A DNA stretch of 64,000 nt from an uncultured Propionibacteriaceae bacterium (GTDB lineage Bacteria; Actinomycetota; Actinomycetes; Propionibacteriales; Propionibacteriaceae). A program made the position numbers and the translations under genes. The notes below the pieces were generated by a model. That model was not told the origin of the DNA and did no database searches. It was given only the letters and a program-made list of their open reading frames with translations. How positions within the stretch are numbered: position 1 is the stretch's first letter; each line of letters starts with the position of its first letter. The DNA is taken from positions 2,355 through 66,354 of the forward strand of contig CALBCJ010000032.1 in assembly GCA_937926975.1 (NCBI GenBank), in the 5' to 3' direction. Positions 6,883-35,711 of this stretch are shown here, in pieces.

Positions 6883-7539
6883 TCAGCTCATGGTGATGTC
6901 GCCCATGACGGTGTGGGGGCTGAGCTGGGCGAGGAGTGCGACGTGGGTGGTGGCGTCGGCGATCTCGATGTGGTCGACGTCGAGGGGGCCGCCGAGGTGG
7001 TAGGCGGGGACGAAGGTGTACATGGTGTCGGGGCCGACGGGGCCGTGCTTCTTCAGCGCCCGGGCGAACAAAGGCTCCCCGTCGGAGCCCAGCATGTCCG
7101 CCTCCATGATGGGGTCTCCTGACAGCTCCGTTTCGATCTGGATGTCTCGGTCCGCTTCGGTCTCCATCATCTCGATGGAGGATGCTGTGGGATAGATGTG
7201 GCCCAGCACAGGGTCGATGCTGAGGCTGGCCCCGGTTCGCTCGCCCCAGAGGAAGAGCTCGCCGAAGGCTGTGCGGACGATGGCATGCCAGGTATCGGTG
7301 CCCATAACGAGGTCGAGGTTGGCGGTCCAGGCCTCGACGACAGGCTGCCACTCAACCGGATCGCACAGCCAGTAGCGGCCGTCGTTGAAGCCGGCGAAGC
7401 CGTAGGTCTCCCAGAAGCGGAAGAGCAGGGGCGGGAAGATGTGGGCGTACTGGTCGTAGCGCTCGGGGGGTACGGGCTTGGTTGCTGTGGGCTCGCCCAG
7501 GTCGGCCTGGATGTCGGCCCAGTCCTCATCACTAGTCAT
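6883..7539 (-). CDS. Tdi1-like immunity protein (GAD-like + DUF1851), distal copy
   Basis: Paralog of 7532..8200. N-terminal 43 aa are identical, the central segment diverges and the C-terminus is conserved. FWETYGFAGFNDGRYWLCDP and AFGELFLWGERTG blocks. Confidence 0.75.
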   Translation of the reverse strand: MTSDEDWADIQADLGEPTATKPVPPERYDQYAHIFPPLLFRFWETYGFAGFNDGRYWLCDPVEWQPVVEAWTANLDLVMGTDTWHAIVRTAFGELFLWGERTGASLSIDPVLGHIYPTASSIEMMETEADRDIQIETELSGDPIMEADMLGSDGEPLFARALKKHGPVGPDTMYTFVPAYHLGGPLDVDHIEIADATTHVALLAQLSPHTVMGDITMS

Positions 7540-8200
7540 GGCTGCGGCCGATGGTGATGTCGCCCATGACGCGGTGGGGGCTGAGCTGGGCGAGGAGGGC
7601 GACGTGGGTAGTGGCGTCGGCGATCTCGATGTGGTCGACGGTGAGGGGGCCGCCGAGGTGGTAGGCGGGGACGAAGGTGTACATGGTGTCGGGGCCTACC
7701 GGTCCGTGCTTCTTCAGCGCCCGGGCGAACAAGTGCTTCCCGTCGGAGCCCAGCAGGTCAGCCTTCATGATGGAGCCTCCCGACACGGCTACCTCGATCT
7801 GAATGTCGCGACTACGCTCACTGGCCATCCGGTCATGCGAGCCCACAGCGGGGTAGATGTGTCCGTAGACCGGGTCGATGCTGAGGCTGCAGCCGGTTCG
7901 CTCGCCCCAGAGGAAGAGCTCGCCGAAGGCTGTGCGGACGATGGCGTGCCAGGTGTCGGTGCCCATGGCGAGGTCGAGGTTGGCGGTCCAGGCGTCGACG
8001 ACGGGCTGCCACTCGGCGGGGTCGCAGAGCCAGTAGCGGCCGTCGAGGAACCCGGCGAAGCCGTAGGTCTTCCAGAAGCGGAAGAGCAGGGGCGGGAAGA
8101 TGTGGGCGTACTGGTCGTACCGCTCGGGGGGTACGGGCTTGGTTGCTGTGGGCTCGCCCAGGTCGGCCTGGATGTCGGCCCAGTCCTCATCACTAGTCAT
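7532..8200 (-). CDS. Tdi1-like immunity protein (GAD-like + DUF1851), toxin-proximal copy
   Basis: Starts 1 nt after the toxin stop and overlaps the next copy by 8 nt. Same conserved blocks as the distal copy. Confidence 0.75.
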   Translation of the reverse strand: MTSDEDWADIQADLGEPTATKPVPPERYDQYAHIFPPLLFRFWKTYGFAGFLDGRYWLCDPAEWQPVVDAWTANLDLAMGTDTWHAIVRTAFGELFLWGERTGCSLSIDPVYGHIYPAVGSHDRMASERSRDIQIEVAVSGGSIMKADLLGSDGKHLFARALKKHGPVGPDTMYTFVPAYHLGGPLTVDHIEIADATTHVALLAQLSPHRVMGDITIGRSHD

Positions 8201-8201
8201 G

Positions 8202-8852
8202 TCACTCCAGAAGGAAGTCGATATTCAAAGGCAAGCCACCCTTGTCTGATGACTGCAGCTGCGTGGCGAAGGCCTCCAGGGCGTCTCGGCGAGCCTTCCA
8301 CTGGCTCCCGATCGATGAGTTCACGTACTTATCACCCATGCTCGGCAGCCCGTCGGAGCCAACGCCGATCACGTCCTTGCCGCCAGCCACGATATCGGGC
8401 TCGTGCAGGGCCGCGAGGGTCGACATCTGCTTCTTGGCCTCAGCCTCGGCCGCGGCCTTGGCCTCGCGGCGGCCCAGGCCCTGGTTGCGATAAACGTCTT
8501 CTAGGTCGCTCGCGAGCTGCCTCTGGAACTTCTCACGGGCTTCTCGCTGGGCGAGCCCCCCGCGCTTGACCTCGGCCAGGTTCTTGAGAAGGTCGTCGGC
8601 GGTCATGCTCTTCAGGCCGTCCATCTGGCGGCGGAGCTGCCGGACGTACTCGTCAGTCTTGCCAGCCAGGTTCTTGGTGCTTCCGGCCTTGAAGACGACG
8701 AGGTGCTCAGCCTTGGCCACGTCATCACCAACGCCCTTGAGGACCTGGTTCGGGTTGAGCTCGTGGCCACTCTTCTTGGCGACCTTCAAGATGTCGTCCA
8801 GCATCTCTCCGAAGATGCCCTTCAGGGCCGCCGCCTTGCCCTTAGGCATCAC
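8202..8852 (-). CDS. polymorphic toxin, Ntox15 (Toxin_43, Tde1-like HxxD nuclease) domain
   Basis: C-terminal AALHEPDIVAGGKDV (HxxD) block followed by Tdi1-like immunity genes. GGGAGG RBS. ATG at 8849 (or GTG at 8852) overlaps the TGA of the upstream ORF. Confidence 0.7.
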   Translation of the reverse strand: MMPKGKAAALKGIFGEMLDDILKVAKKSGHELNPNQVLKGVGDDVAKAEHLVVFKAGSTKNLAGKTDEYVRQLRRQMDGLKSMTADDLLKNLAEVKRGGLAQREAREKFQRQLASDLEDVYRNQGLGRREAKAAAEAEAKKQMSTLAALHEPDIVAGGKDVIGVGSDGLPSMGDKYVNSSIGSQWKARRDALEAFATQLQSSDKGGLPLNIDFLLE

Positions 8853-9346
8853 TGGCCTCCCATCAGCTTCTCCAGGGCCAGGTTCAAGGCCAGCTGCAGC
8901 AGCCGCCGGGCGATCTCCTTCGCGACCGGGATCCAGGCCAGGGACGCACCGAACGTCGCAGCCGCGGCTGCGACCGCCTGAGCAATCTGGATCGCCAGGA
9001 GGACCAGGTTGACCACGAAGGCGATCTTGAGCGCGATCACGGCGACCCCGACCACGAGCAGGCAGCCGCCGGTGATACTGCCAGCCAGGGCCAGCTTCTG
9101 GGCGACGTCAGCGACGCCGTCGATCTCGTCGAACGCCTTCTGGAAGGCTTCCATCGCGGGGCCGGAGCTGGTCGACAGAGCGTAGCTCTTGGCCTGATCA
9201 GCCAGGCCAGTGGCTGAGCCGACCTCCCCGGCGTACGACATCCACCGGTTCGCGTAGTCGAAGATCCGGTCCTCGTTGCCCTCGGGCCACTCAAAGCCCA
9301 GCATGTTCAGCAGGTACGACACCTCGCCGGGGAGCATGACCGCCAT
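8849..9346 (-). CDS. T7SS-signal / WXG100-like N-terminal domain protein with hydrophobic C-terminal half
   Basis: LPGEVSYLLNMLGFEWPEGNEDRIFDYANRW matches the N-terminal signature of actinobacterial ESX-dependent polymorphic toxins, followed by 2-3 hydrophobic helices. ATG at 9346 sits 1 nt after the upstream stop. Confidence 0.65.
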   Translation of the reverse strand: MAVMLPGEVSYLLNMLGFEWPEGNEDRIFDYANRWMSYAGEVGSATGLADQAKSYALSTSSGPAMEAFQKAFDEIDGVADVAQKLALAGSITGGCLLVVGVAVIALKIAFVVNLVLLAIQIAQAVAAAAATFGASLAWIPVAKEIARRLLQLALNLALEKLMGGQ

Positions 9347-9347
9347 C

Positions 9348-9665
9348 TCAGCCTCCCAGGATCGCGTCAGACGCCTGGACCGCGGCATCCTCGGTCGCGG
9401 AGTAGATCTCGGCGGCAGCGCCGAGACGCTGGCTGTGGGCCCCGTACTCCTCAGCAACCGAGTCGACGGTCTCCTGGACCCGCGCCAGCACCGCTGAGTA
9501 CAGCATGGACGCGACCCCGCCCAGGGTGTCGTTGGTGCCGAGGGCAGACACGTCACCGACCTCGCCCATCAGGGCCTGGGTCTTGGCGAGCAGGTCCTGG
9601 ACCGCCTCGTCCATCCCGCCGGCGGCCCGGCGCAGCGCGCTCGGCTCGAACTGGATGTCGCTCAC
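9348..9665 (-). CDS. small helical-hairpin protein, WXG100/ESX-secretion-associated-like
   Basis: 105 aa, two predicted long helices with a central turn. GTGA overlap with the upstream gene. Position is typical of ESX substrate or chaperone partners. Confidence 0.5.
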   Translation of the reverse strand: MSDIQFEPSALRRAAGGMDEAVQDLLAKTQALMGEVGDVSALGTNDTLGGVASMLYSAVLARVQETVDSVAEEYGAHSQRLGAAAEIYSATEDAAVQASDAILGG

Positions 9666-10069
9666 TGCTTCACCTGCCGCAGCATCTGGAGCATCGAGTC
9701 GGTGTACGCGTCCAGTGACCGGATCGAGTCCTCCTGGATCTGGCGGACCTGGTCGCGGACCGCGCCCAGGTCGGGAGACAGCTGGGACAGCTGGGCCATC
9801 AGCGCGGTCTGGTACGCCTCCAGGGCGTTGTTCACGGCCTCGGCAATGTGGTCACCCAGCTCGGCGTTGCTGAGTCGCAGCAGCTGCGGCTGCAGGCTGA
9901 CTTCCTGAACTCGGCCGTTGGTCACCGTCACCCGCAGCCGCTCGTCAGCGGCTGTGCCCTCCGCCGTGACCGGGCTGGACTCCAGGTCCGGGCCCGGCGA
10001 CGGGGCCTCAGCCCGAGCCAGCTGCGCATCCAGATCGGCAAACACCTGCCGCAACGATTCCATGGTCAT
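9662..10069 (-). CDS. YbaB/EbfC-like protein (ESX-locus associated type)
   Basis: LRVTVTNGRVQEVSLQPQLLRLSNAELGDHIAEAVNNA matches the YbaB-fold core. GAGGAG RBS lies 6 nt before the ATG at 10069. Confidence 0.6.
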   Translation of the reverse strand: MTMESLRQVFADLDAQLARAEAPSPGPDLESSPVTAEGTAADERLRVTVTNGRVQEVSLQPQLLRLSNAELGDHIAEAVNNALEAYQTALMAQLSQLSPDLGAVRDQVRQIQEDSIRSLDAYTDSMLQMLRQVKQ

Positions 10070-15828: not shown

Positions 15829-16020
15829 ATGGGAATGTTCGACGAGCTGAAGGACAAGGCCACCGAGGCCGCTCAGGAGGCGCTGGCGGACGAGGCGAAG
15901 ACCGACGCCGTGCTGGACCAGGCCCGTGACTTTGCCAACGAGAAGACCGGCGGCAAGTTCGAGGGCCAGATCAACCAGGTCCGCGACCTGGTCGACGGGC
16001 AGGTCGGCGACAAGGCCTGA
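15829..16020 (+). CDS. small MT0933/Rv0909-like (antitoxin-annotated family) protein
   Basis: GMFDELKDKA...GKFEGQINQVRDLVDGQVG resembles the conserved small actinobacterial family. GGAAGGGAG RBS upstream. Confidence 0.6.
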   Translation: MGMFDELKDKATEAAQEALADEAKTDAVLDQARDFANEKTGGKFEGQINQVRDLVDGQVGDKA

Positions 16021-16522: not shown

Positions 16523-16834
16523 ATGTCCGGACGAGTTCGCAGGTCGTTGACGGGAGTCGCTCTGGCAGCCGCCCTGACCGTGAGTCTCGCCCCAGCGGCG
16601 CAGGCGACGGTGCGTCACGTGGGAGGCGGCACCTGGGACTACGGCATCGCGAGCCTTCGCCCCTCGTGGAACTGGTCGAACTACCACCACCCCAGCCGGC
16701 GGCACAGGTCGAGCGTCACAGGGGACGGGCTCCTTGTCTCCTCTAGGTGCACCGCGCCGGGAGAGTGGAGCCGGTCTCGGGCCTGGGACAGCAGACCGTG
16801 GGTCATCGACGAGGCCTTCTGGACGTACTGCTGA
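16523..16834 (+). CDS. lactococcin 972 family bacteriocin precursor, copy A
   Basis: Sec signal ending AAQA, then VGGGTWDYG...WSNYHHPSRRHRSSV, matching the GTW..G...SNY.H....H.S.V core of Lcn972. Confidence 0.8.
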   Translation: MSGRVRRSLTGVALAAALTVSLAPAAQATVRHVGGGTWDYGIASLRPSWNWSNYHHPSRRHRSSVTGDGLLVSSRCTAPGEWSRSRAWDSRPWVIDEAFWTYC

Positions 16835-16853
16835 CCTGCTGAGGCTGACAGGA

Positions 16854-16885
16854 GCGGGGGTGCGGTCCTCGCGGCCGCGCCCCGC
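16854..16885 (+). terminator. imperfect GC hairpin after bacteriocin gene A
   Basis: GCGGGG...CCCCGC with an internal GCGG/CCGC pairing. Positionally equivalent to the hairpin after gene B. Confidence 0.35.
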
Positions 16886-17209
16886 GCACCTAGCCAGGAG
16901 GCTATTCGCGTGCCTGGTCTCGTGGCTGGCCCGGCGGCACCGAGAGGGGAAGAACGTCTTTGCGGGTCTGCTGCGACCACCGGCGCTGGGTGCCGAGGCG
17001 GCCATCTCCAGCCAGCGAGGCGGGTAGTGTGATCGCGACTCTGGATGGTCGCAGCGGCGATCTGTAGCGACCTGCGAGGCGCACCGGGAGCCGGGGCCAG
17101 ACTGGTGCGGGCTCCGGCGGCTGATCGGGACTGGTGACCTGGAACTGCTCCAGGTCACACCTGTGGCGGGGCTGCTCGGTCTCGGGTCAACAGCTTTCTC
17201 GCGAAGGTA

Positions 17210-17238
17210 TTGTCAACCCTCTTCGGAAGGTCTAGTGT
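17210..17238 (+). promoter_or_regulatory. candidate promoter of bacteriocin gene B
   Basis: TTGTCA, 17 nt spacer, TAGTGT. Duplicated copy of 16437..16466. Confidence 0.45.
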
Positions 17239-17243
17239 GAGGG

Positions 17244-17265
17244 GTCAAGGCTAATCGGCCTTGAC
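17244..17265 (+). promoter_or_regulatory. 5' leader hairpin or operator, copy B
   Basis: GTCAAGGC-N6-GCCTTGAC inverted repeat. Confidence 0.5.
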
Positions 17266-17295
17266 TGGGGGGCGCTCGATGGAGAGGAGAGGGCT

Positions 17296-17607
17296 ATGTC
17301 CAGACGAGTTCGCAGGTCGTTGGTGGGAGCCGTTCTGGCAGCCGCGCTGGCCGTGGGTGTCGCCCCAGCGGCGCAGGCGACGGTAGTTCACGTGGGAGGC
17401 GGCACCTGGAACTACGGTGTCGAGAGCATCTTCCCCTCGTGGAACTGGTCCGACTACTACCACCCCAGCCGGCGGCACAGGTCGAGCGTGACCGGTGACC
17501 AGGGGCTCGTCCGGTCCAGGTGCACTGCGCCGGGGCAGTGGAGCCGGGTTCGGGCCTGGGACAGCAACCCGTTCCGCATCGACCACGCTTACTGGTCGTA
17601 CTGCTGA
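17296..17607 (+). CDS. lactococcin 972 family bacteriocin precursor, copy B
   Basis: Roughly 70% identical to copy A, with the same signal peptide, GGGTWNYG and SDYYHPSRRHRSSV blocks and the same two Cys positions. Confidence 0.8.
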   Translation: MSRRVRRSLVGAVLAAALAVGVAPAAQATVVHVGGGTWNYGVESIFPSWNWSDYYHPSRRHRSSVTGDQGLVRSRCTAPGQWSRVRAWDSNPFRIDHAYWSYC

Positions 17608-17612
17608 CAGGA

Positions 17613-17642
17613 GCGGGGTGCGGCTGGACGGCCGTACCCCGC
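17613..17642 (+). terminator. 12-bp stem hairpin between bacteriocin gene B and the membrane-protein gene
   Basis: GCGGGGTGCGGC / GCCGTACCCCGC with a 6-nt loop. Likely an attenuator or transcript stabiliser inside the operon. Confidence 0.5.
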
Positions 17643-17668
17643 ACACCCCCACCTGAGAGGAGGTCCTC

Positions 17669-19651
17669 GTGCAGAGGGCGAGCCGGCTGGCATACCTGAT
17701 TCTCCTGAGCTACTCGTGCCTACTGGCTGGGCTGGTCGTCCAGCGGGTCGACGAGTTCGCGCCCCTGGGCGGCGACTGGGTCCTGCAGGTTTCCGGCGAG
17801 CTGAACGCACCAGCCGCCGAGATTACGGCGGCGCTACGGCAGGCGGCTACCGAGCAAGGGGCAGCGCTGGTGCAGATCGAGAGCGACATCCGCGACCCGG
17901 GCGGGCTTCGGCACGCGCACGTGGTCGCTGCCCCGGCCGGGTCGGAGCCGACCCGGTGGCTCGAGTCCGGCTACCCAGCCTTCTCGCGGCGGATGCGGAC
18001 CGAGATGCACCCGGAGGCCGCCCCTGACCCGCGCGGCTTCTACCTGGTCTTCGGTAGTGAGGCGGCCCTAGCCCAGCTGAGCGACGTGATGCGCGCTCAC
18101 GGTCTGGTAGCTCACACCCAGGCCTTCTACGAGCCAACCGCGTTCATCCCGTGGCTGATGCTGCGGCCACTGGGGTACAGCCTGGTGATCATGACCTTGC
18201 TCTGCGCCCTGCTGGTCGGGGTGAGCGTGGTCCTGGATGTGCTGCGGTACGCGGTGCAGCGGCTGCACGGGGCCGGGTTCGGCAGGCTCGTGCTCGGTGA
18301 CCTGCTCGGCGCCGGCCGCTTCCTTCTGGTCGCGGCCCCGGCGGTCTGGGCCGGAGCCGGAGTGATCCTCTGGGCCTACAACGGTGGGCACCACGGTCTG
18401 GCGGTCGCCGGCTGGGCGGCCTGCTTCACGCTCGCCATGGCGGTGGTGGTGGCTGTGGCCCACCTGGTCGCCCTGGTCACCGTGACCAAGCTGGCGATCC
18501 TGGAGTCGCTCAAGGGCAAGGTGATGACGTCGTGGGGGATGGCGCTGGTGTACGGGATCCGGGTCCCGGCTGCGGTGCTGGCGGCGTCCACCCTGGTGGT
18601 GCTGTGGGGCCAGGCCGTCCAGCTGCACGCGTACGACCGAGCCCGGGCCGCCTGGGCCGCCGCTTCTGACACCGTCTCCATCGGCTTCAGTGCCCGGGTC
18701 GGTGTCGAGGAGCAGGACCGGCTGTCGCTCGAGGTTGGGAGGTGGCTGGTGGCGGAGGAGCAGGCCGGCCGGACGATCCTGTGCCACCAGGAGCAGCTGA
18801 CAGACCTGGCGGGGTCGGCAGACCGACCCCTGCTGCTGGTGAACGACGCCTACCTTCGCCGGCACGAGGTGCTCGACGAGCACGGGACCCCAATCCGCTC
18901 AGCCCCCCCGGGACAGGTGCTGGTCCTGGTGCCGACGGCACTCGCCGCCCACACTGACCAGGTCCGAGACAGAGTCGCGGGCAGCCTCCTGGAACCGGAC
19001 GTGAACGTCGTGACTGGCCAGACCCGCGACGGGCAGAGCCTGTTCCGGTACGGGGCGGTCCGCCTCCGCAACCTGGACGCCTTCGCCGTCGACCCGATCG
19101 TGGTCGTCGCCAACAGCACGACCGGCGCGATCCGGCTGGGCGACTACATGTCCTATGCCAGTCAGGGCGGGGTCCTGCTGACCGACTGGGAGACCAGCGC
19201 CAGGGCAGCCAACGACTACGGACTGGCCAGCTTCATCCTGGCCTACACTCCCGTCTCGCGAGACGCGGCCAAGGTCCTGGCCGAGGAGGTGCGCGAGCTG
19301 CGGGTCACTGCGACCAGTGAGATGGTGGCGGTGGTGGTCCTGGTGGCGACGGCGATCGGGGCGGCCACCCTCTACACCCGGTCCCGTTACCAGCGGACCT
19401 TCGTGCGCTACCTCAGCGGCTGGACGTTCGCCGCGACCCACCGGCTGCTGCTGGTGGTGGAGCTGGGGGTCGTGCTGCTCGTGGTCGGGACTGGGATTGT
19501 CTGGGCCCACATCCATTCGAAGTGGGAGCCGATCAGCCCCTGGACTGTGCCCTCGGTCGCCGGGCTGGGACTGGCTGGTTTCGGGGTTGTGGTGGTGGCG
19601 CTGGCGGTGGTGGCGCGGCGTCTGGTTCGTACTCGTTCGTCGGAGGCATGA
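17669..19651 (+). CDS. bacteriocin-associated integral membrane protein (Lcn972 ORF2-like, DUF1430/FtsX-like)
   Basis: 660 aa with an N-terminal TM, a large extracytoplasmic domain and two clusters of TM helices. Its position between Lcn972-type genes and the ABC ATPase mirrors the lactococcal operon. Confidence 0.75.
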   Translation: MQRASRLAYLILLSYSCLLAGLVVQRVDEFAPLGGDWVLQVSGELNAPAAEITAALRQAATEQGAALVQIESDIRDPGGLRHAHVVAAPAGSEPTRWLESGYPAFSRRMRTEMHPEAAPDPRGFYLVFGSEAALAQLSDVMRAHGLVAHTQAFYEPTAFIPWLMLRPLGYSLVIMTLLCALLVGVSVVLDVLRYAVQRLHGAGFGRLVLGDLLGAGRFLLVAAPAVWAGAGVILWAYNGGHHGLAVAGWAACFTLAMAVVVAVAHLVALVTVTKLAILESLKGKVMTSWGMALVYGIRVPAAVLAASTLVVLWGQAVQLHAYDRARAAWAAASDTVSIGFSARVGVEEQDRLSLEVGRWLVAEEQAGRTILCHQEQLTDLAGSADRPLLLVNDAYLRRHEVLDEHGTPIRSAPPGQVLVLVPTALAAHTDQVRDRVAGSLLEPDVNVVTGQTRDGQSLFRYGAVRLRNLDAFAVDPIVVVANSTTGAIRLGDYMSYASQGGVLLTDWETSARAANDYGLASFILAYTPVSRDAAKVLAEEVRELRVTATSEMVAVVVLVATAIGAATLYTRSRYQRTFVRYLSGWTFAATHRLLLVVELGVVLLVVGTGIVWAHIHSKWEPISPWTVPSVAGLGLAGFGVVVVALAVVARRLVRTRSSEA

Positions 19652-20284
19652 ATGCTGCAGATCACAGGGCTGACGAAGCGTTTCGGTAGTCGTACGTTGT
19701 GGCAGGACCTGGAGATGGAGGTTGGGGCTCGCCAGATGGTGGCTCTGACGGGTCCGAGTGGTTCGGGTAAGTCGACGCTGCTGAACTGTATTGGGCTGCT
19801 GGAGCCGGTGTCGGCGGGGCGGGTGCTGTTCGGTGGGGTTGACCTGGTGGGCCTTCGGGGCGGCCGGGCCCGTCGGTTCCGAAGGGACCAGATGGGGTAC
19901 CTGTTCCAGAACTATGCCCTGATCGACAACACCTCCGTCCTGCGGAACCTGCTGGAGGCGGTCGGGGCGAAGCCGCGGCGCAGCCGGCCGACCCGAGCCG
20001 ACTGCGAGCAGGCGCTGGAGCAGGTCGGCCTCGAAGGCCGGGGCCCCGACCCGACCTACCAGCTCTCCGGCGGGGAGCAGCAGCGGGTGGCCCTGGCCCG
20101 GCTCATCGTGCGCCGTCCGTCGCTGGTGCTCGCTGACGAGCCCACCGGTGCCCTCGACCACGCCAACGCCGACATGGTGATCAACACGCTGCGGGACTTC
20201 GCCCGAGCCGGGGCAACAGTCCTGATCGCCACCCACTCCGACCGGGTGGTCGCTGGCTGCGACCGAGAGTTCAGCCTGGTCTGA
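19652..20284 (+). CDS. ABC transporter ATP-binding protein (bacteriocin export/immunity)
   Basis: Walker A GPSGSGKST, signature LSGGEQQRVA, Walker B LVLADEPTGALD. TGAATG junction with the upstream gene. Confidence 0.9.
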   Translation: MLQITGLTKRFGSRTLWQDLEMEVGARQMVALTGPSGSGKSTLLNCIGLLEPVSAGRVLFGGVDLVGLRGGRARRFRRDQMGYLFQNYALIDNTSVLRNLLEAVGAKPRRSRPTRADCEQALEQVGLEGRGPDPTYQLSGGEQQRVALARLIVRRPSLVLADEPTGALDHANADMVINTLRDFARAGATVLIATHSDRVVAGCDREFSLV

Positions 20285-20299
20285 GACGCCCAGACCAGG

Positions 20300-24861
<4,562 letters not shown>

Positions 24862-29686: not shown

Positions 29687-30946
29687 TCATCGCAGTCGAG
29701 CGGGTCCCGGTCTGGTCCGGTCCTCTCGGGCCGGGCCGTCGGCGCTGACCAGGACCGGGATTCCGGTCGCCGCCAGGGCGTCGAGTGCAGAGCCGGTGAC
29801 CGGGCGGGGCCGGGCCCGCCGTACCTGATCGGTGAGCTGCGACCGGGCCTCCAGGTCGTCTGGGTCGCTGACCGGGTGCCAGTCGCCGGAGTCGACCACC
29901 GGCAGGTCGACATCGGCGTGGGTGACCGCCAGCCAGTCCGGGCGGGCGGCGCGGACCGCGTACCGCAGCATCCCCAGGTCCAGCCTGCCGAGCCGGAAAG
30001 CACCCTGGAACTCGCCCTCGCCGTTGTGGCGCTCGCCCACGTCCAGCGCTGAGTCCTCCGACGGGAACGGCCCGGCGCCGTGGCGGCTGTGCAGCGTACG
30101 GGCCACCCCGACCACCTGCGCCGGCTCGTCGGTGACCCGGGCCAGGAGCTCGCGGGCCGGGCCGGGCAGGGTCGTGGACCAGGTGGTGTGCGGGTGGAAG
30201 CCGACCCGCTCATCCAGCAGCGCCCCCTGGGCTCCCTCGAAGACCACCTCCCCGCGGCCCACCCAGTCCGCGAGCGGGTCGCCGACCTCGACCGTACGGC
30301 CGAAGTCCAGCAGCAGCCCCGCCATCTCGGCCACGCTCGGTACGTCCGTCGTGACCGGGGCGTAGAAGCGGACCAGGTCGTCGAGGCGGGAGACCAGCCG
30401 GCGGCGGTTCTGGGTGTCCACGGCCCGGGGCGCCACCCCGACCGCGTCGGAGGGGCAGCGGGTGTCCCCGTACGACTGGCCAGCTCGCAGCCCCCGGGCC
30501 GTGGCGCCGGCATAGAAGACGGTCTCGCCGATCCCGAGCCCGGTTGACCCGTGCCGGGCGTCACCACGGGCCCGCTCCCGGGCCTGGTTGGCCGCCACGT
30601 GGACCGGGGTCACCAGCAGCGCCGCCGGGTCGACACTCACCGTCGCCAGCGGGTTCGCCACCCCCAGCCGCTCCAGCTGGACCGCCTCAGCAGCCAGCAG
30701 CTCGGCGTCGAGCAGGTGGTGGCGCGACAGGTGGGTCGGGACCCCGGCCAGAGTGCCCGAGCCGAGCTGGCGAAAGGTGTGGTGCCGACCGGCGGCGACC
30801 ACGTTGTGGGCGGCCTGGGCGCCACCGTTGAACCGGACCACACCGGCCACGCCACGACCGGTGCGACCGCCGACCGAGCACAGCCAGTCGACGGTCGCCC
30901 CCTTGCCCTCGTCACCGAAGCCGAGGCCGACCACGATCGTGTGCAC
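29687..30946 (-). CDS. divergent adenylosuccinate-synthetase-fold protein (PurA paralog, altered substrate motifs)
   Basis: GFGDEGKGA P-loop, AAHNV, GLGIGET, FEGAQGALLD and HGAGPFPSE are retained. The TTGRPRR loop is replaced by GAFRLGR and TKLD by THAD. GTG start lies 6 nt after the vWA stop. Confidence 0.8.
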   Translation of the reverse strand: MHTIVVGLGFGDEGKGATVDWLCSVGGRTGRGVAGVVRFNGGAQAAHNVVAAGRHHTFRQLGSGTLAGVPTHLSRHHLLDAELLAAEAVQLERLGVANPLATVSVDPAALLVTPVHVAANQARERARGDARHGSTGLGIGETVFYAGATARGLRAGQSYGDTRCPSDAVGVAPRAVDTQNRRRLVSRLDDLVRFYAPVTTDVPSVAEMAGLLLDFGRTVEVGDPLADWVGRGEVVFEGAQGALLDERVGFHPHTTWSTTLPGPARELLARVTDEPAQVVGVARTLHSRHGAGPFPSEDSALDVGERHNGEGEFQGAFRLGRLDLGMLRYAVRAARPDWLAVTHADVDLPVVDSGDWHPVSDPDDLEARSQLTDQVRRARPRPVTGSALDALAATGIPVLVSADGPAREDRTRPGPARLR

Positions 30947-30952
30947 TGCTGG

Positions 30953-32601: not shown

Positions 32602-32694
32602 GCCCGGCGCGCGGCACCCGGTACGCGACCGGTCCCGGCGGCACTGCCCCCGGGTAAGGGCTCATATCCTGCCTTCCGGCACTAGACTCCCCAC

Positions 32695-35043
32695 GTGCCC
32701 ACGTCACACCTTGACCTGCCCCTCGCCCACGCCGGGAAGGTGCGCGAGCTGTACGCGACCGACCGCGACGACCAGCTCCTGCTGGTGGCGACCGACAGCA
32801 TCTCGGCCTTCGACCGGGTGCTGCCGACACCGGTCCCCGACAAGGGGGCGGTGCTCACCCAGCTCAGCACCTCGTGGCTGGGCCAGCTCGCCGACGTCGT
32901 ACCGAACCACCTCGTCAGCTCGCAGGTGCCACCACCTGTGGCCGGACGGGCGGTGGTCGTGGAGCGCCTGGAGATGGTCCCGGTGGAGTGCGTGGTCCGC
33001 GGCTACCTGGCGGGGTCCGCCTGGAAGGAGTACCGCGAGACCGGGCTGGTCGCCGGGATGGAGCTGCCGCGCCAGCTGCTGCAGGGCGAGCGGCTGGAGC
33101 GGCCGCTGTTCACCCCCGCCCGCAAGGCGCCGCAGGGAGAGCACGACGAGAGCATCACGTACGCCCAGCTGGCGCACAGCGTCGGGCCGGACCTGGCCCG
33201 CCAGCTCTGGCTGGCCTCCATGAAGCTGTACGTCCGGGCCGAGCGGATCGCCCGCTCGCGGGGCCTGATCCTGGTGGACACCAAGTTCGAGTTCGGCCGT
33301 CGCGCCGACGGCACCCTGGTGCTGGCCGACGAGGTGCTGACGCCGGACTCGTCGCGGTACTGGTCCGTGGCCGACTACCGGCCCGGGCAGGAGATGCCCG
33401 CCCTCGACAAGCAGCTGCTTCGGGACTGGCTGGCGACCGAGTCGGGATGGGACCCCGACAGCGGGCAGCCGGCCCCCGAGCTGCCGGCGGCGCTGGTGGC
33501 GGCGCTGCGCGACCGCTACACCGACCTCTTCCGGCGCCTCACCGGGTACGACATGACCCCGGCCGAGCCGTGGGTAGCACGGGCCGCCGCAGGGCAGGCA
33601 GCGTCAGCAGCGCCACCGGCTGGCGCCAGTGCTGTCTCGGGCCAGCCGGGAGACGACCTGGCTGAGAGCGCGACCCCCGCCCCGGAGGCTCAAGGCGCCG
33701 GCGCCCACCTGGACCCGGCCCAGGGCGAGTTCGCGTCCGGGCCCGGCACCCAGGGCGGGCTCGTCCCTCCAGCCCCCGACCCGGCGCTGAGCGGTGCTGG
33801 CGCCCCGGACGAGACGCCCGGTGGACCGGGTGCTGGTGCGGTCGGACCGCCTGTCGACCCGACCCTCGCGGACGAGCCGGCGACCGGCGGGCCGGAGCCA
33901 GCCACAAAGAGCGAGGCAGGCCCGCTGACCGGTGGTGCCGAGATCGAGCAGGCGCACGCGGAGGCCCGTGCGGCCGCCGACCTGCTGGACAACGACCTGA
34001 CGGTGGGGCTGGGAGGCGGCGCCGCTGCCGGCCCAGGTGCCGAGACGCTGCCGGCGCCGGCCGCCGGCGAGGCCATCAGCCAGGACCAGCTCGTCCCAGA
34101 CCAGGTCGCAGGGACAGGCCAGGTAGCCCAGCAGGGCCCGGAGGCTGCCGGTGAGCCCCTGGGTGGACCCGAGGTCGGCGAGCCGGCCGCGTACGAGACG
34201 GCAGACGGCCCCCTGGAGGCTGTGACTCAGGAGGTGGTGAGAGCAGAGGGCCTGGAAGGGCTCATCGACGGTGAGCCCGCGGCGGCTGAGCCGGAGCCCG
34301 GGCCGGCCGCTGGCGCCGCCGAGCTGGAAGGCAGCCCAGGCCAGGGTGTGCCGACGAGTGGTGCCGCGGTCGCCGCGCCACCACCTGACGCCGACCTGGT
34401 GGCGGGCGCCGGGGCAGACGAGGACGCCGCGTACAGGGCCGCTGCGCTCCCGCCCGCCGAGGGCCTGGCGCCAACCGGTGAGGTCCTGCCCGTCGCGGCT
34501 GAGGCCCCAGCCACCGCGGAGGGTGCAGGCGAGCTGCCGGGAGCGGCCGGGGTGCCGGTGGTCGGGCCGGGAGCGGCCGAGGAGCCGGCGGGTGCTGAAG
34601 CGGCGGCTGGAGCGGACGTGGCTGAGGCTGCTGGGGCGGACCATCCGTACCAGGTGGCGGCCGGACCGGCGGGTGCTGAGGGCTCGGTGGCAGACGAGAC
34701 CAGGACGGGTCCGGCCGAGCCGGACGCCCGCTACGACCACCGCGCCACGCAGGAGGCGGGGGTCGCCCACGACAGCAGCGGACCGACCACGACCCTCGTG
34801 GTCGAGGTGATGCCGAAGCCCGAGATCCTCGACCCGCAGGGCAAGGCCGTCACCGGGGCCCTGCGCCGGCTGGGGTTCGGCGGGCTGTCGGTCCGGCAGG
34901 GCAAGCGCTTCGAGGTCGTGGTCGACGGCGAGCTGAGCGACGACCTTCTCCAGCAGGTACGGCAGGCGGCTGAGACCCTGCTCGCGAACACCGTGATCGA
35001 GGACTTCAGGGTCGTCGTGCCCGAGGAGCAGGGGCAGGCATGA
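32695..35043 (+). CDS. purC: SAICAR synthase fused in frame to PurS through a roughly 400-aa low-complexity linker
   Basis: aa 1-295 are PurC ([28 protein letters not shown]). aa 701-782 are PurS ([17 protein letters not shown]). There is no in-frame stop between them. Confidence 0.8.
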
Positions 35044-35711
35044 AGGTCGGGGTCGTCACCTTCCCCGGGTCCCTCGACGACCAGGACGCGCGGCGCGCGG
35101 TCCGGCTGACGGGGGCCGAGGCGGTGCCGCTGTGGCACGCCTCCGACTCTCTGCACGGGGTGGACGCCGTGATCCTGCCGGGCGGCTTCACGTACGGGGA
35201 CTACCTGCGCTGCGGCGCGATCGCCCGGTTTGCCCCGGTGATGACCGCGGTGGTCGAGGCCGCCGAGCAGGGACTGCCGGTGCTGGGGATCTGCAACGGC
35301 TTCCAGGTGCTCTGCGAGGCCCACCTGCTGCCGGGGGCGCTGACCCGCAACGTGGGGCGGACCTTCATCTGCCGCGAGCAGCGGCTGCGGGTCGAGACCC
35401 GCGACACGGTCTGGACCAACCAGTTCGGCCGGGGCGAGGAGATCACCATCGTCCTGAAGAACGGCGAGGGCTCCTACCAGGCCTCCGCCGAGACCCTGCG
35501 CCAGCTGGAGGAGCAGGACCAGGTGGTCATCCGCTACCTGGGCAACCCGAACGGCTCCGCCCACGACATCGCCGGCATCACGAATGCCCGGGGCAATGTC
35601 GTCGGGCTGATGCCGCACCCGGAGCACAGCATTGAGGAGCTGACCGGGCCAAGCCTCGACGGGCGGCGCTTCTTCGAGTCCCTGTACGCCTTCCTCGCGG
35701 TCGCTCGCTAA
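35040..35711 (+). CDS. purQ: phosphoribosylformylglycinamidine synthase, glutaminase subunit
   Basis: GICNGFQ catalytic Cys and MPHPEH motif. ATGA overlap with the purS stop. Confidence 0.95.

Follow-up and report, generated by a model that had tools for sequence, protein, structure and literature searches.

Organization of the locus

The DNA analysed here, a stretch of 64,000 nucleotides (the window) from contig CALBCJ010000032.1 of an uncultured Propionibacteriaceae bacterium (assembly GCA_937926975.1), carries on its minus strand six consecutive genes encoding, in this order, a YbaB-like protein, a 105-aa protein, a protein consisting of a WXG100_2 domain (the carrier), a toxin of the Tde or Ntox15 type, and two Tdi-type immunity proteins (Table 1). 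The Tde/Tdi pair is in itself ordinary; what sets the locus apart is solely the separation of the toxin from its secretion domain. Every junction between neighbouring genes overlaps or spans 1–2 nt, and for this reason we regard the six genes as one operon. The stop of the YbaB-like gene overlaps the start of the 105-aa gene, the stop of the toxin gene (8204-8202) is followed by one nucleotide and then by the ATG of tdiA at 8200 (GAG TGA c ATG), and the stop of tdiA overlaps the start of tdiB. A promoter scan found no sigma-70-like promoter, and the terminator scan returned a single terminator-like match, at the level expected by chance.

Table 1. Features of the toxin operon, with positions in the window and the basis of each assignment.
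Feature	Position	Strand	Basis
YbaB/EbfC-fold (EspL-like) protein, 135 aa, opening the operon, putative accessory factor or chaperone	9662..10069	-	Pfam YbaB_DNA_bd, E 1.5e-7
105-aa helical-hairpin protein (WXG100/EspC/PE-like), predicted export partner of the carrier	9348..9665	-	Profiles, YxxxE
Carrier, stand-alone WXG100_2 (CpnT-N-terminal-like) protein, 165 aa	8849..9346	-	PF25547, E 7e-13
Recombination breakpoint zone	8880..9000	-	60-nt DNA identity against the sister strain L041
GGGAGG Shine-Dalgarno sequence of the toxin gene, 6 nt ahead of the toxin ATG	8856..8861	-	Read from sequence
Tde-type Ntox15 toxin (predicted DNase), 215 aa, stand-alone	8202..8849	-	Pfam, phmmer, AF2/Foldseek, invariant residues
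tdiA, presumed cognate immunity protein of Tdi type, 222 aa, GAD-like + Tdi1_C	7532..8200	-	Pfam, NCBIfam, phmmer
tdiB, second Tdi-type paralog, 218 aa, tandem duplicate of tdiA	6883..7539	-	Pfam, identity to tdiA

The toxin is an Ntox15 protein of the Tde type

A first-pass annotation of the window had described a 215-aa open reading frame (ORF) with a C-terminal block containing an HxxD motif, and had assigned it to the Tde/Ntox15 nucleases. The ORF is present at 8202-8852 on the minus strand, its likely start is the ATG at 8849, and the quoted block, STLAALHEPDIVAGGKDVIGVGSDGLPSMGDKYVNSSIGSQW, corresponds to residues 143–184. The HxxD motif is formed by H149 (codon 8405-8403) and D152 (codon 8396-8394). 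When the proteins of the cassette were compared with the Ntox15, GAD-like and DUF1851 models, as the annotation had proposed, all three models were matched above their cut-offs. For the toxin the match to Ntox15 (PF15604) covers profile positions 4–150 of 153 with E 4.3e-31 and 108.5 bits; the curated cut-off is 22.5 bits, so that by sequence comparison the match lies far above chance level. Two alignments, one of 24 and one of 71 toxin homologs, show no variation at H149, P151, D152 and G157 or in a VNSS.G..W motif.

A phmmer search matched the toxin to the Ntox15 domains of Bacteroidales Tde1 in the structures 8FZZ, 8G0K and 8FZY (E 2e-10 to 6e-8; E 2e-10 for 8FZZ_A). The alignment pairs LAALHEPDIVAGG of the toxin with LAALHNPDQIAGG of 8FZZ_A and places the HxxD motif on HNPD of 8FZZ and on ANPA of 8FZY and 8G0K, which represent the H279A/D282A mutant. 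The AlphaFold2 (AF2) model of the toxin has a predicted local distance difference test score (pLDDT) of 93.3 and a predicted template modelling score (pTM) of 0.88, and the only significant Foldseek matches to this model in the PDB are the chains of 8FZY (E 1e-6 to 1e-5, probability 1.0), with a template modelling score (TM) of 0.53–0.70 over 176–186 columns at a sequence identity of about 23–25%. Given the confident model and the match to 8FZY, the 215 residues comprise essentially a bare Ntox15 domain preceded by an N-terminal helix of about 25 residues; the N-terminus itself is a short basic leader, MPKGKAAALKGIF. The Pfam result, the matches to solved structures and the comparison of folds agree in identifying the toxin as a true Ntox15/Tde-type protein. 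Bacteroidales Tde1 is an Mg2+-dependent non-specific DNase whose activity is abolished by the H279A substitution (PMC10470768). By homology with this protein and with Tde1 of Agrobacterium tumefaciens, the 215-aa toxin is predicted to be a non-specific, Mg2+-dependent DNase acting through H149 and D152.

Two Tdi-type immunity genes follow the toxin

The proteins encoded from 1 nt past the toxin stop had been described as having the architecture of Tdi1, and both copies do. The GAD-like domain (PF08887) is matched with E 3e-26 and 2e-26 (92 bits, cut-off 25 bits) and the T6SS_Tdi1_C domain (DUF1851, PF08906) with E 4e-12 and 7e-13 (46–49 bits, cut-off 27.4 bits). In addition, TdiA partially matches the NCBIfam TaeI family (E 4e-30), and its closest solved relative by phmmer is A. 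tumefaciens Tdi1, Atu4351 (6ITW, E 2e-10), the match to the Bacteroidales Tdi 8G0K_B being weaker. The Pfam and 6ITW matches identify the two genes behind the toxin as genuine immunity genes of the Tdi type.

Known Tdi proteins split the Ntox15 fold, with a P(Phi)4GG loop that mimics and displaces the PD(X)3GG active-site helix of the toxin (PMC13556189). Both elements can be recognized here. The catalytic motif H149-E-P-D152 lies inside the PD(X)3GG motif of the toxin, which reads PDIVAGG, and the P(Phi)4GG motif is found as PAYHLGG at residues 178–184 of TdiA (7669-7649) and in TdiB (7008-6988). No Tdi of the clade lacks this motif, which also occurs in the variants PTYHLGG and PVPALGG. Since PDIVAGG and PAYHLGG are both present, the same neutralization by active-site mimicry is expected: by homology with the Bacteroidales and Bacillota complexes, either Tdi copy would bind the toxin, insert its PAYHLGG loop in place of the PDIVAGG helix and split the fold.

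TdiA and TdiB are 87% identical in amino acid sequence, and their duplication is visible in the DNA as direct repeats (D1/D2) with a spacing of 661 nt. Their divergence is concentrated in residues 112–156 (7867-7733 in tdiA, 7206-7072 in tdiB), where 25 of 45 positions are identical, against 163 of 173 elsewhere; codons 101–153 contain 19 non-synonymous and 12 synonymous differences. To judge from the sequences, this looks like a specificity patch that diversifies while the mimicry loop is retained, and the second copy may broaden or back up immunity. We considered whether TdiB might be an orphan immunity protein for the toxin allele of P0003 type found in a second oral cassette, and rejected this since its patch is no closer to the immunity protein of that allele (26 of 44 positions matched) than the patch of TdiA is (25 of 44). 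A 367-aa protein of Nocardia sp. NPDC055053 (P0036) joins an N-terminally truncated Ntox15 domain to complete GAD-like and Tdi1_C domains, and may represent a fusion of toxin and immunity protein, a remnant, or an artefact of annotation.

The upstream genes resemble those of Esx substrates

The first-pass annotation had also described the genes upstream of the toxin as being of the WXG, YbaB and type VII secretion system (T7SS) signal type rather than of the type VI (T6SS) kind. The profile matches in Table 1 and a YxxxE motif bear this out and, as far as can be told from sequence, the context is truly Esx-substrate-like. The YbaB_DNA_bd match of the first gene is above the cut-off, and the 135-aa gene is called on an identical contig as well; a YbaB-like gene opens the cassette also at the related loci L019, L021, L022, L024, L034, L036, L037 and L041. 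Genes of the YbaB/EspL-like kind accompany Esx substrates in the SigM/ESX-4 regulon of Mycobacterium abscessus, and esxF-esxE-cpnT-ift is the classical precedent for a locus of this sort (PMC13491425).

The 105-aa protein gives sub-threshold Pfam matches to WXG100 (E 3e-5), T7SS_ESX_EspC (E 2e-4) and PE (E 3e-3), and its match to TIGR03930 (WXG100_ESAT6, E 1e-6) is likewise under the cut-off. Near its C-terminus it contains a Y-x-x-x-E motif formed by Tyr 88 and Glu 92 (EIYSATED); Glu 92 is nearly invariant, and the tyrosine four residues ahead of it is found in 9 of 11 orthologues. YxxxD/E is reportedly a general Esx export motif.

The carrier features a W20-P-E-G hairpin turn near its N-terminus, a hydrophobic stretch of about 59 residues (84–142, Kyte-Doolittle maximum 2.75) and a C-terminal helix ending in LMGGQ. 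Almost all members of a set of 98 close homologs are 162–167 aa long, and residues P6, G17, W20, P21, E25 and W35 are invariant, with the N-terminal pattern LPxE...LG..WPE..E, among 39 homologs. The closest named homolog, at 85%, is from Arachnia propionica, and UniRef names relatives of the carrier 'outer membrane channel protein CpnT-like N-terminal domain'. The AF2 model (pLDDT 80) is all-helical. Its top Foldseek matches are EsxA of Geobacillus and of Staphylococcus aureus, GBS1074 and M. abscessus EsxEF (4I0X), with TMt 0.74–0.86 and E-values that are weak (about 0.1) because the fold is small. In the mycobacterial PEST1 toxins, the N-terminal ~173 residues are predicted to pair in PE/PPE-like fashion with an upstream WXG100 protein (PMC10654092). 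The 105-aa protein and the carrier would similarly form a PE/PPE-like or EsxEF-like bundle bearing a composite WxG + YxxxD/E signal, and the YbaB-like protein may be an accessory factor or chaperone.

Toxin and carrier are separate polypeptides

The first-pass annotation was right about the toxin-immunity gene pair, and overlooked that the toxin is detached from the WXG100_2 trafficking domain. The carrier ends ...EKLMGGQ-TGA, and its stop TGA (8851-8849) shares one A with the toxin ATG (8849-8847) in a TGATG overlap; the Shine-Dalgarno sequence of the toxin gene is supplied by the last codons of the carrier gene (ATG GGA GGC, encoding M-G-G). The toxin is thus translationally coupled to the carrier as a separate polypeptide and is not fused to the WXG100_2 domain. 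The covalent linkage of toxin and trafficking domain that belongs to the classical definition of polymorphic toxins is absent here, the two being separate ORFs. The split holds in all relatives examined, and the close toxin homologs are all stand-alone proteins of 182–238 aa. A programmed frameshift or readthrough joining carrier and toxin was also considered. In the relatives, the most upstream possible toxin start is offset from the carrier stop by -7 to +5 nt and is found in each of the three frames, and a conserved fusion by recoding is therefore excluded.

Relatives of the cassette and of the carrier

The order YbaB, WXG-like gene, carrier, Ntox15, Tdi is kept in other Propionibacteriaceae whose toxins are 37–65% identical to that of the window, in at least three genomic neighbourhoods unlike the one described here. 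The nearest species representatives for the toxin, at 64–65%, are metagenome-assembled genomes of an uncultured oral Propionibacteriaceae bacterium and of a member of the Actinomycetota. The identical cassette was found on at least 13 contigs, human oral metagenome assemblies among them. In one oral metagenome contig (L025 1251-1300, compared with L029 1248-1300) a G-run (AAGGGGGGAAGG) puts the toxin leader in another frame, so that the called toxin starts 17 codons later, which may reflect an assembly error, decay or phase variation. A second oral cassette, which lies by ackA-pta and carries the P0003 allele, is adjoined by genes for an AAA ATPase of 317 aa and a Peptidase_S8 protein longer than 735 aa (L006/L008 5340-9176), and a Peptidase_S8 gene of more than 1,056 aa stands ahead of the Actinoplanes cassette (L036).

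A profile search with the carrier among 1.8 billion cluster representatives retrieved 1,962 relatives. Among the best 150 of these, 58 are 150–175 aa long and 69 have at least 300 aa; in nearly all of the latter the carrier domain is found at the extreme N-terminus, starting at residue 1–10. The fused relatives examined have variable C-terminal domains, including Scabin-like, PI3/PI4-kinase-like and unknown ones, and a fused 988-aa Ntox15 toxin with a Tdi is present in Nocardia. In the fused forms a linker of the type ...EKAKGLLKKV... follows right after the carrier domain and resembles the leaders of the stand-alone toxins. Elsewhere, stand-alone carriers precede EndoU toxins (Micromonospora, Actinoplanes) and CdiA_C and Ntox24 toxins (Propionibacteriaceae bacterium Y1700), and each toxin behind a stand-alone carrier, Ntox15 included, is followed by a small ORF. 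When the most upstream start is taken, these unrelated toxins all begin with a short basic leader (MPKGKAAALKG, MAKGRAAAAEAKK, MGRRGKAGLF and MARGSGKLMRAAL), and the leader type M-[PAG]-[KR]-x-G is common to different toxin classes. The carrier family thus combines a conserved trafficking module with variable toxins, as polymorphic toxins do. Because the carrier has both stand-alone and fused relatives, and leader and linker are similar, the split and fused forms are two states of one polymorphic toxin family.

Some arrangements differ from that of the window. The Y1700 genome (L033 5687-9900) contains two complete split cassettes in tandem, with CdiA_C and Ntox24 toxins, in which the carrier C-termini are identical and the toxin leaders nearly so (MAKGRAAAAEAKK... 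and MAKGRAAAAGAKK...). In L037-L040 (2087-4968), a stand-alone 156-aa AHH nuclease and a 184-aa partner lie upstream of a trio of YbaB-like gene, 110-aa gene and carrier, and a second YbaB-like gene follows in the place of the toxin, so that the same parts occur in another arrangement. In Naumannella (L034/L035 3281-4495) the trio of YbaB-like, 107-aa and carrier genes runs straight into prmC, and neither a toxin nor an immunity gene follows it.

Toxin and immunity genes are replaced between strains at a fixed locus

SpoU, VTT, LemA, PyrE, sortase and cassette are arranged in the same order in a near-identical sister strain (L041, GCA_030535415.1). Between the window and this strain amino acid identity is 99.5% for SpoU, 98.9% for LemA and for PyrE, 97.8% for the YbaB-like protein, 99.0% for the 105-aa protein and 94.6% for the carrier (95 by BLASTP), against 58.6% for the toxin and 77–82% for the Tdi proteins, of which the sister strain has three in tandem genes. 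In sliding 60-nt windows DNA identity is mostly 95–100% from 11100 to about 9001 (88% at 9180-9121), falls to 73–82% over the final ~150 nt of the gene for the carrier, where the protein nevertheless stays 95% identical, and is 43–80% across the toxin gene. Mosaic structure is seen in the tdi genes, segments of 95–98% identity alternating with segments of 58–68%. Such a pattern characterizes polymorphic toxin loci; it places a crossover within the conserved gene of the carrier and represents a replacement of toxin and immunity genes between strains at a fixed position. Since identity falls inside the carrier gene, the exchanged unit consists of the 3' end of the carrier gene, the toxin gene and the immunity genes, swapped between strains by recombination. 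Composition gives only a mild signal of horizontal transfer: in a window of 67–74% GC, the cassette has GC values of 0.63–0.71 against 0.65–0.75 in its flanks, and GC at third codon positions (GC3) of 0.84–0.90 against 0.90–0.96.

Comparison with known systems

Tde1 and Tdi1 of A. tumefaciens are reportedly a DNase effector of a T6SS and its immunity protein. They share with the window the Ntox15 HxxD toxin and the GAD-like + DUF1851/Tdi1_C immunity gene immediately downstream. Tde1 is, however, a T6SS cargo with a glycine-zipper region, whereas the window toxin has no such region and belongs to a Gram-positive organism, where its neighbours are T7SS-type genes; proteobacterial homologs of the toxin that were found are about 310–370 aa long and have an additional N-terminal part. 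The N-terminal glycine-zipper region of A. tumefaciens Tde1 is reportedly needed to cross the target membrane (PMC10240207). The Bacteroidales and Bacillota Tde/Tdi pairs (PMC10470768, PMC13556189) have the PD(X)3GG and P(Phi)4GG motifs in common with the pair described here, and multiple or orphan tdi copies are common there too. The likeness to the Bacteroidales Tde1 extends to the fold and the catalytic His and Asp, but that toxin is fused to Hcp, is only distantly related by the sequence identity given above, and comes from another phylum with other neighbour genes.

The PEST cassettes of McProf/MabR type are WXG100-Ntox15 toxins with GAD-like + DUF1851 immunity proteins in prophages of M. 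abscessus and M. chelonae (10.1101/2022.04.27.489733; PMC10654092). They too have an actinobacterial T7SS-type setting, a small WXG100-like gene upstream, modular recombination, and an N-terminal WXG100-like secretion domain of ~165–173 residues predicted to pair with the upstream protein. In them, however, a single protein comprises secretion domain, linker and toxin, whereas the window has a separate 165-aa carrier and a bare 215-aa toxin; and they are prophage-borne, whereas the cassette of the window is chromosomal without prophage genes and adds a YbaB-like gene and two immunity copies. The esxF-esxE-cpnT-ift locus of M. tuberculosis is laid out alike, with small Esx-type gene(s) followed in turn by a CpnT-N-like WXG100_2 domain, a toxin and an immunity gene. 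CpnT/TNT is exported with the help of ESX-4 and an EsxE/EsxF pore. In contrast to the window, CpnT is a single protein of ~850 aa with an NAD+ glycohydrolase toxin and host cells as its target; the locus described here has a predicted DNase on a separate polypeptide and one small partner instead of two, and its host lacks a mycolic-acid outer membrane.

The first-pass annotation proposed that a T6SS-type cassette had been re-plugged into a Gram-positive secretion route. This is essentially correct but was already known, because Ntox15 has been listed with T7SS in Actinobacteria (Zhang et al. 2012, PMC3482391), the WXG100-Ntox15-GAD/DUF1851 combination is published for mycobacteria as noted above, and Gram-positive Tde/Tdi pairs of Bacillota have been studied experimentally (PMC13556189). 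In the literature searched we found no description of the detached-carrier (split WXG100_2) architecture, and nothing on a T7SS in Arachnia.

Proposed mechanism and alternative explanations

The locus as a whole is probably best explained as a split Tde/Tdi polymorphic toxin operon with Esx-type export, in a high-GC actinobacterium of the human mouth that stands nearest to Arachnia. From the character of the neighbouring genes we infer that the toxin leaves the cell through an Esx/type VII system, and it would ride there as non-covalent cargo, held by its short basic leader or by the C-terminal helix of the carrier. Several observations weigh against this interpretation. The 27 ORFs scanned in the window, 20 of them large ORFs at 17.6–64 kb compared with Pfam, include no EccC/EssC (FtsK), EccB, EccD or mycosin; the products of the large ones include enzymes of purine biosynthesis, ABC transporters, a 5'-nucleotidase and a sensor kinase, along with others of that sort. 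Secretion of Tde1 by Bacillus thuringiensis was independent of EssC and rose on deletion of essC (PMC13556189), and a T7SS gene neighbourhood is therefore not proof of export by a T7SS. The 105-aa protein scores under the Pfam and TIGRFAM cut-offs, the leader shared by the toxins is short and of low complexity, and in the AF2 model the N-terminal helix of the toxin (residues 9–26) is not free but folds back against the domain. Finally, the toxin-less trio of Naumannella suggests that these three genes may have a toxin-independent function of their own.

Some of these points would suit a release of the same Tde/Tdi pair without any type VII machine, through a pore formed by carrier and partner as in EsxE/EsxF, by lysis or by another pathway, the T7SS-like neighbours then being a translocation module and not a secretion signal. 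The EssC-independent secretion in B. thuringiensis, the lack of T7SS core genes among the ORFs scanned and the toxin-less trio all fit this explanation, as do the long hydrophobic stretch of the carrier and the CpnT channel-like naming of its relatives. We nevertheless consider it unlikely: the WPEG turn and YxxxE together are exactly the composite Esx substrate signal, and both are conserved; Esx systems and substrates have been reported in Propionibacteriales (10.64898/2026.09.08.750141); and in its fused relatives the family shows polymorphic toxins of the typical T7SS kind. That the DNase is never exported and serves instead as an intracellular toxin-antitoxin, addiction or abortive-infection module, killing its producer on loss of immunity or phage attack, would accord with the tight coupling of toxin and immunity genes, with a mobility of the cassette implied by its differing neighbourhoods among genomes, and with the phage defence suggested for related PEST cassettes in prophages (PMC10654092). 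It would leave the three secretion-type neighbour genes unexplained, and characterized Tde/Tdi pairs act between cells. PADLOC and PHROGs gave no match for the cassette, which has no prophage genes or flanking repeats and no tRNA near it, the only repeats being those of the 661-nt tdi duplication; phage and plasmid collections returned one weak Streptococcus phage match for the toxin and one Streptomyces match for the carrier, neither of them informative. The strain-level diversification of the toxin and the immunity arrays are moreover a signature of antagonism between strains, and altogether an intracellular role seems very improbable. Hardly credible is decay, in which a stop or frameshift would have broken a fused WXG100_2-Ntox15 protein and left the toxin ORF as a non-functional remnant. 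Fused relatives with the carrier domain at residues 1–161 are common and the L025 contig has a frameshift in the toxin leader, but the split persists among toxins ranging in identity from 100% to 37% and also where the toxin is of another type, the carrier length is fixed, the toxin has its own ATG, Shine-Dalgarno sequence and start/stop overlap, its catalytic residues are intact and invariant, and its GC3 is high (0.84).

Within the preferred explanation of a split operon with Esx-type export, a wider proposal can be made, which is tentative and, in our judgement, somewhat more apt to fail than to hold. The carrier, the YxxxE partner and the YbaB-like helper would constitute a cargo-type T7SS polymorphic toxin system that non-covalently loads interchangeable small toxins (Ntox15, EndoU, CdiA_C, Ntox24) by way of the shared leader or the carrier C-terminal helix, with the hydrophobic hairpin of the carrier providing membrane insertion or translocation. 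Such a system would correspond, in Gram-positive bacteria, to the cargo effectors of T6SS and not to the fused, 'specialised' ones. Its targets in oral Propionibacteriaceae might be rival strains or Saccharibacteria epibionts. Esx activity against these epibionts has been described in oral Actinomycetota (10.64898/2026.09.08.750141); they are a possible alternative target, for which that preprint offers no evidence at this locus.

Other features of the window

About 8 kb from the Tde cassette, two 103-aa genes of the Lactococcin_972 family (16523-16834 and 17296-17607, plus strand) are followed by a ~660-aa protein without a Pfam match (17657-19651, plus strand) and an ABC ATPase (19652-20284, plus strand). 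From its gene content, the region 16523-20284 appears to have the usual layout of a lactococcin-972-type bacteriocin with immunity and transport genes, and would be a second interbacterial weapon. A 63-aa MT0933_antitox (CsbD-like) gene (15829-16020, plus strand) lies just downstream of fructose-bisphosphate aldolase. The purine-biosynthesis region contains the true purA (23335-24861, plus strand, E 2e-175) and, 5 kb away, a second, divergent adenylosuccinate-synthetase-like gene (29690-30952, minus strand; Adenylsucc_synt E 5.5e-50, profile positions 1–328 of 416). A 785-codon open frame at 32686-35043 (plus strand) matches SAICAR synthetase at residues 15–257 and PurS at residues 705–776 with ~450 stop-free codons between them, and another long open frame (33604-35055) runs antisense to it; the former may be two genes in one frame of a high-GC genome rather than a fusion.

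Significance

In the published polymorphic toxins of T7SS, such as the LXG toxins, CpnT and PEST, the toxin is fused to a helical export domain. A large conserved family instead keeps an export domain of 162–167 aa separate, with bare toxins of several kinds behind it. The window and its sister strain provide a clean natural example of the replacement of a toxin allele, with an expanding immunity array. If the toxin is indeed carried as non-covalent cargo, the rules for T7SS effectors would broaden, and small toxins without an export domain would count among them; the cassette would offer a simple, swappable two-part system for studies of Esx cargo selection; and an interbacterial weapon would be added to those of the human oral Propionibacteriaceae.

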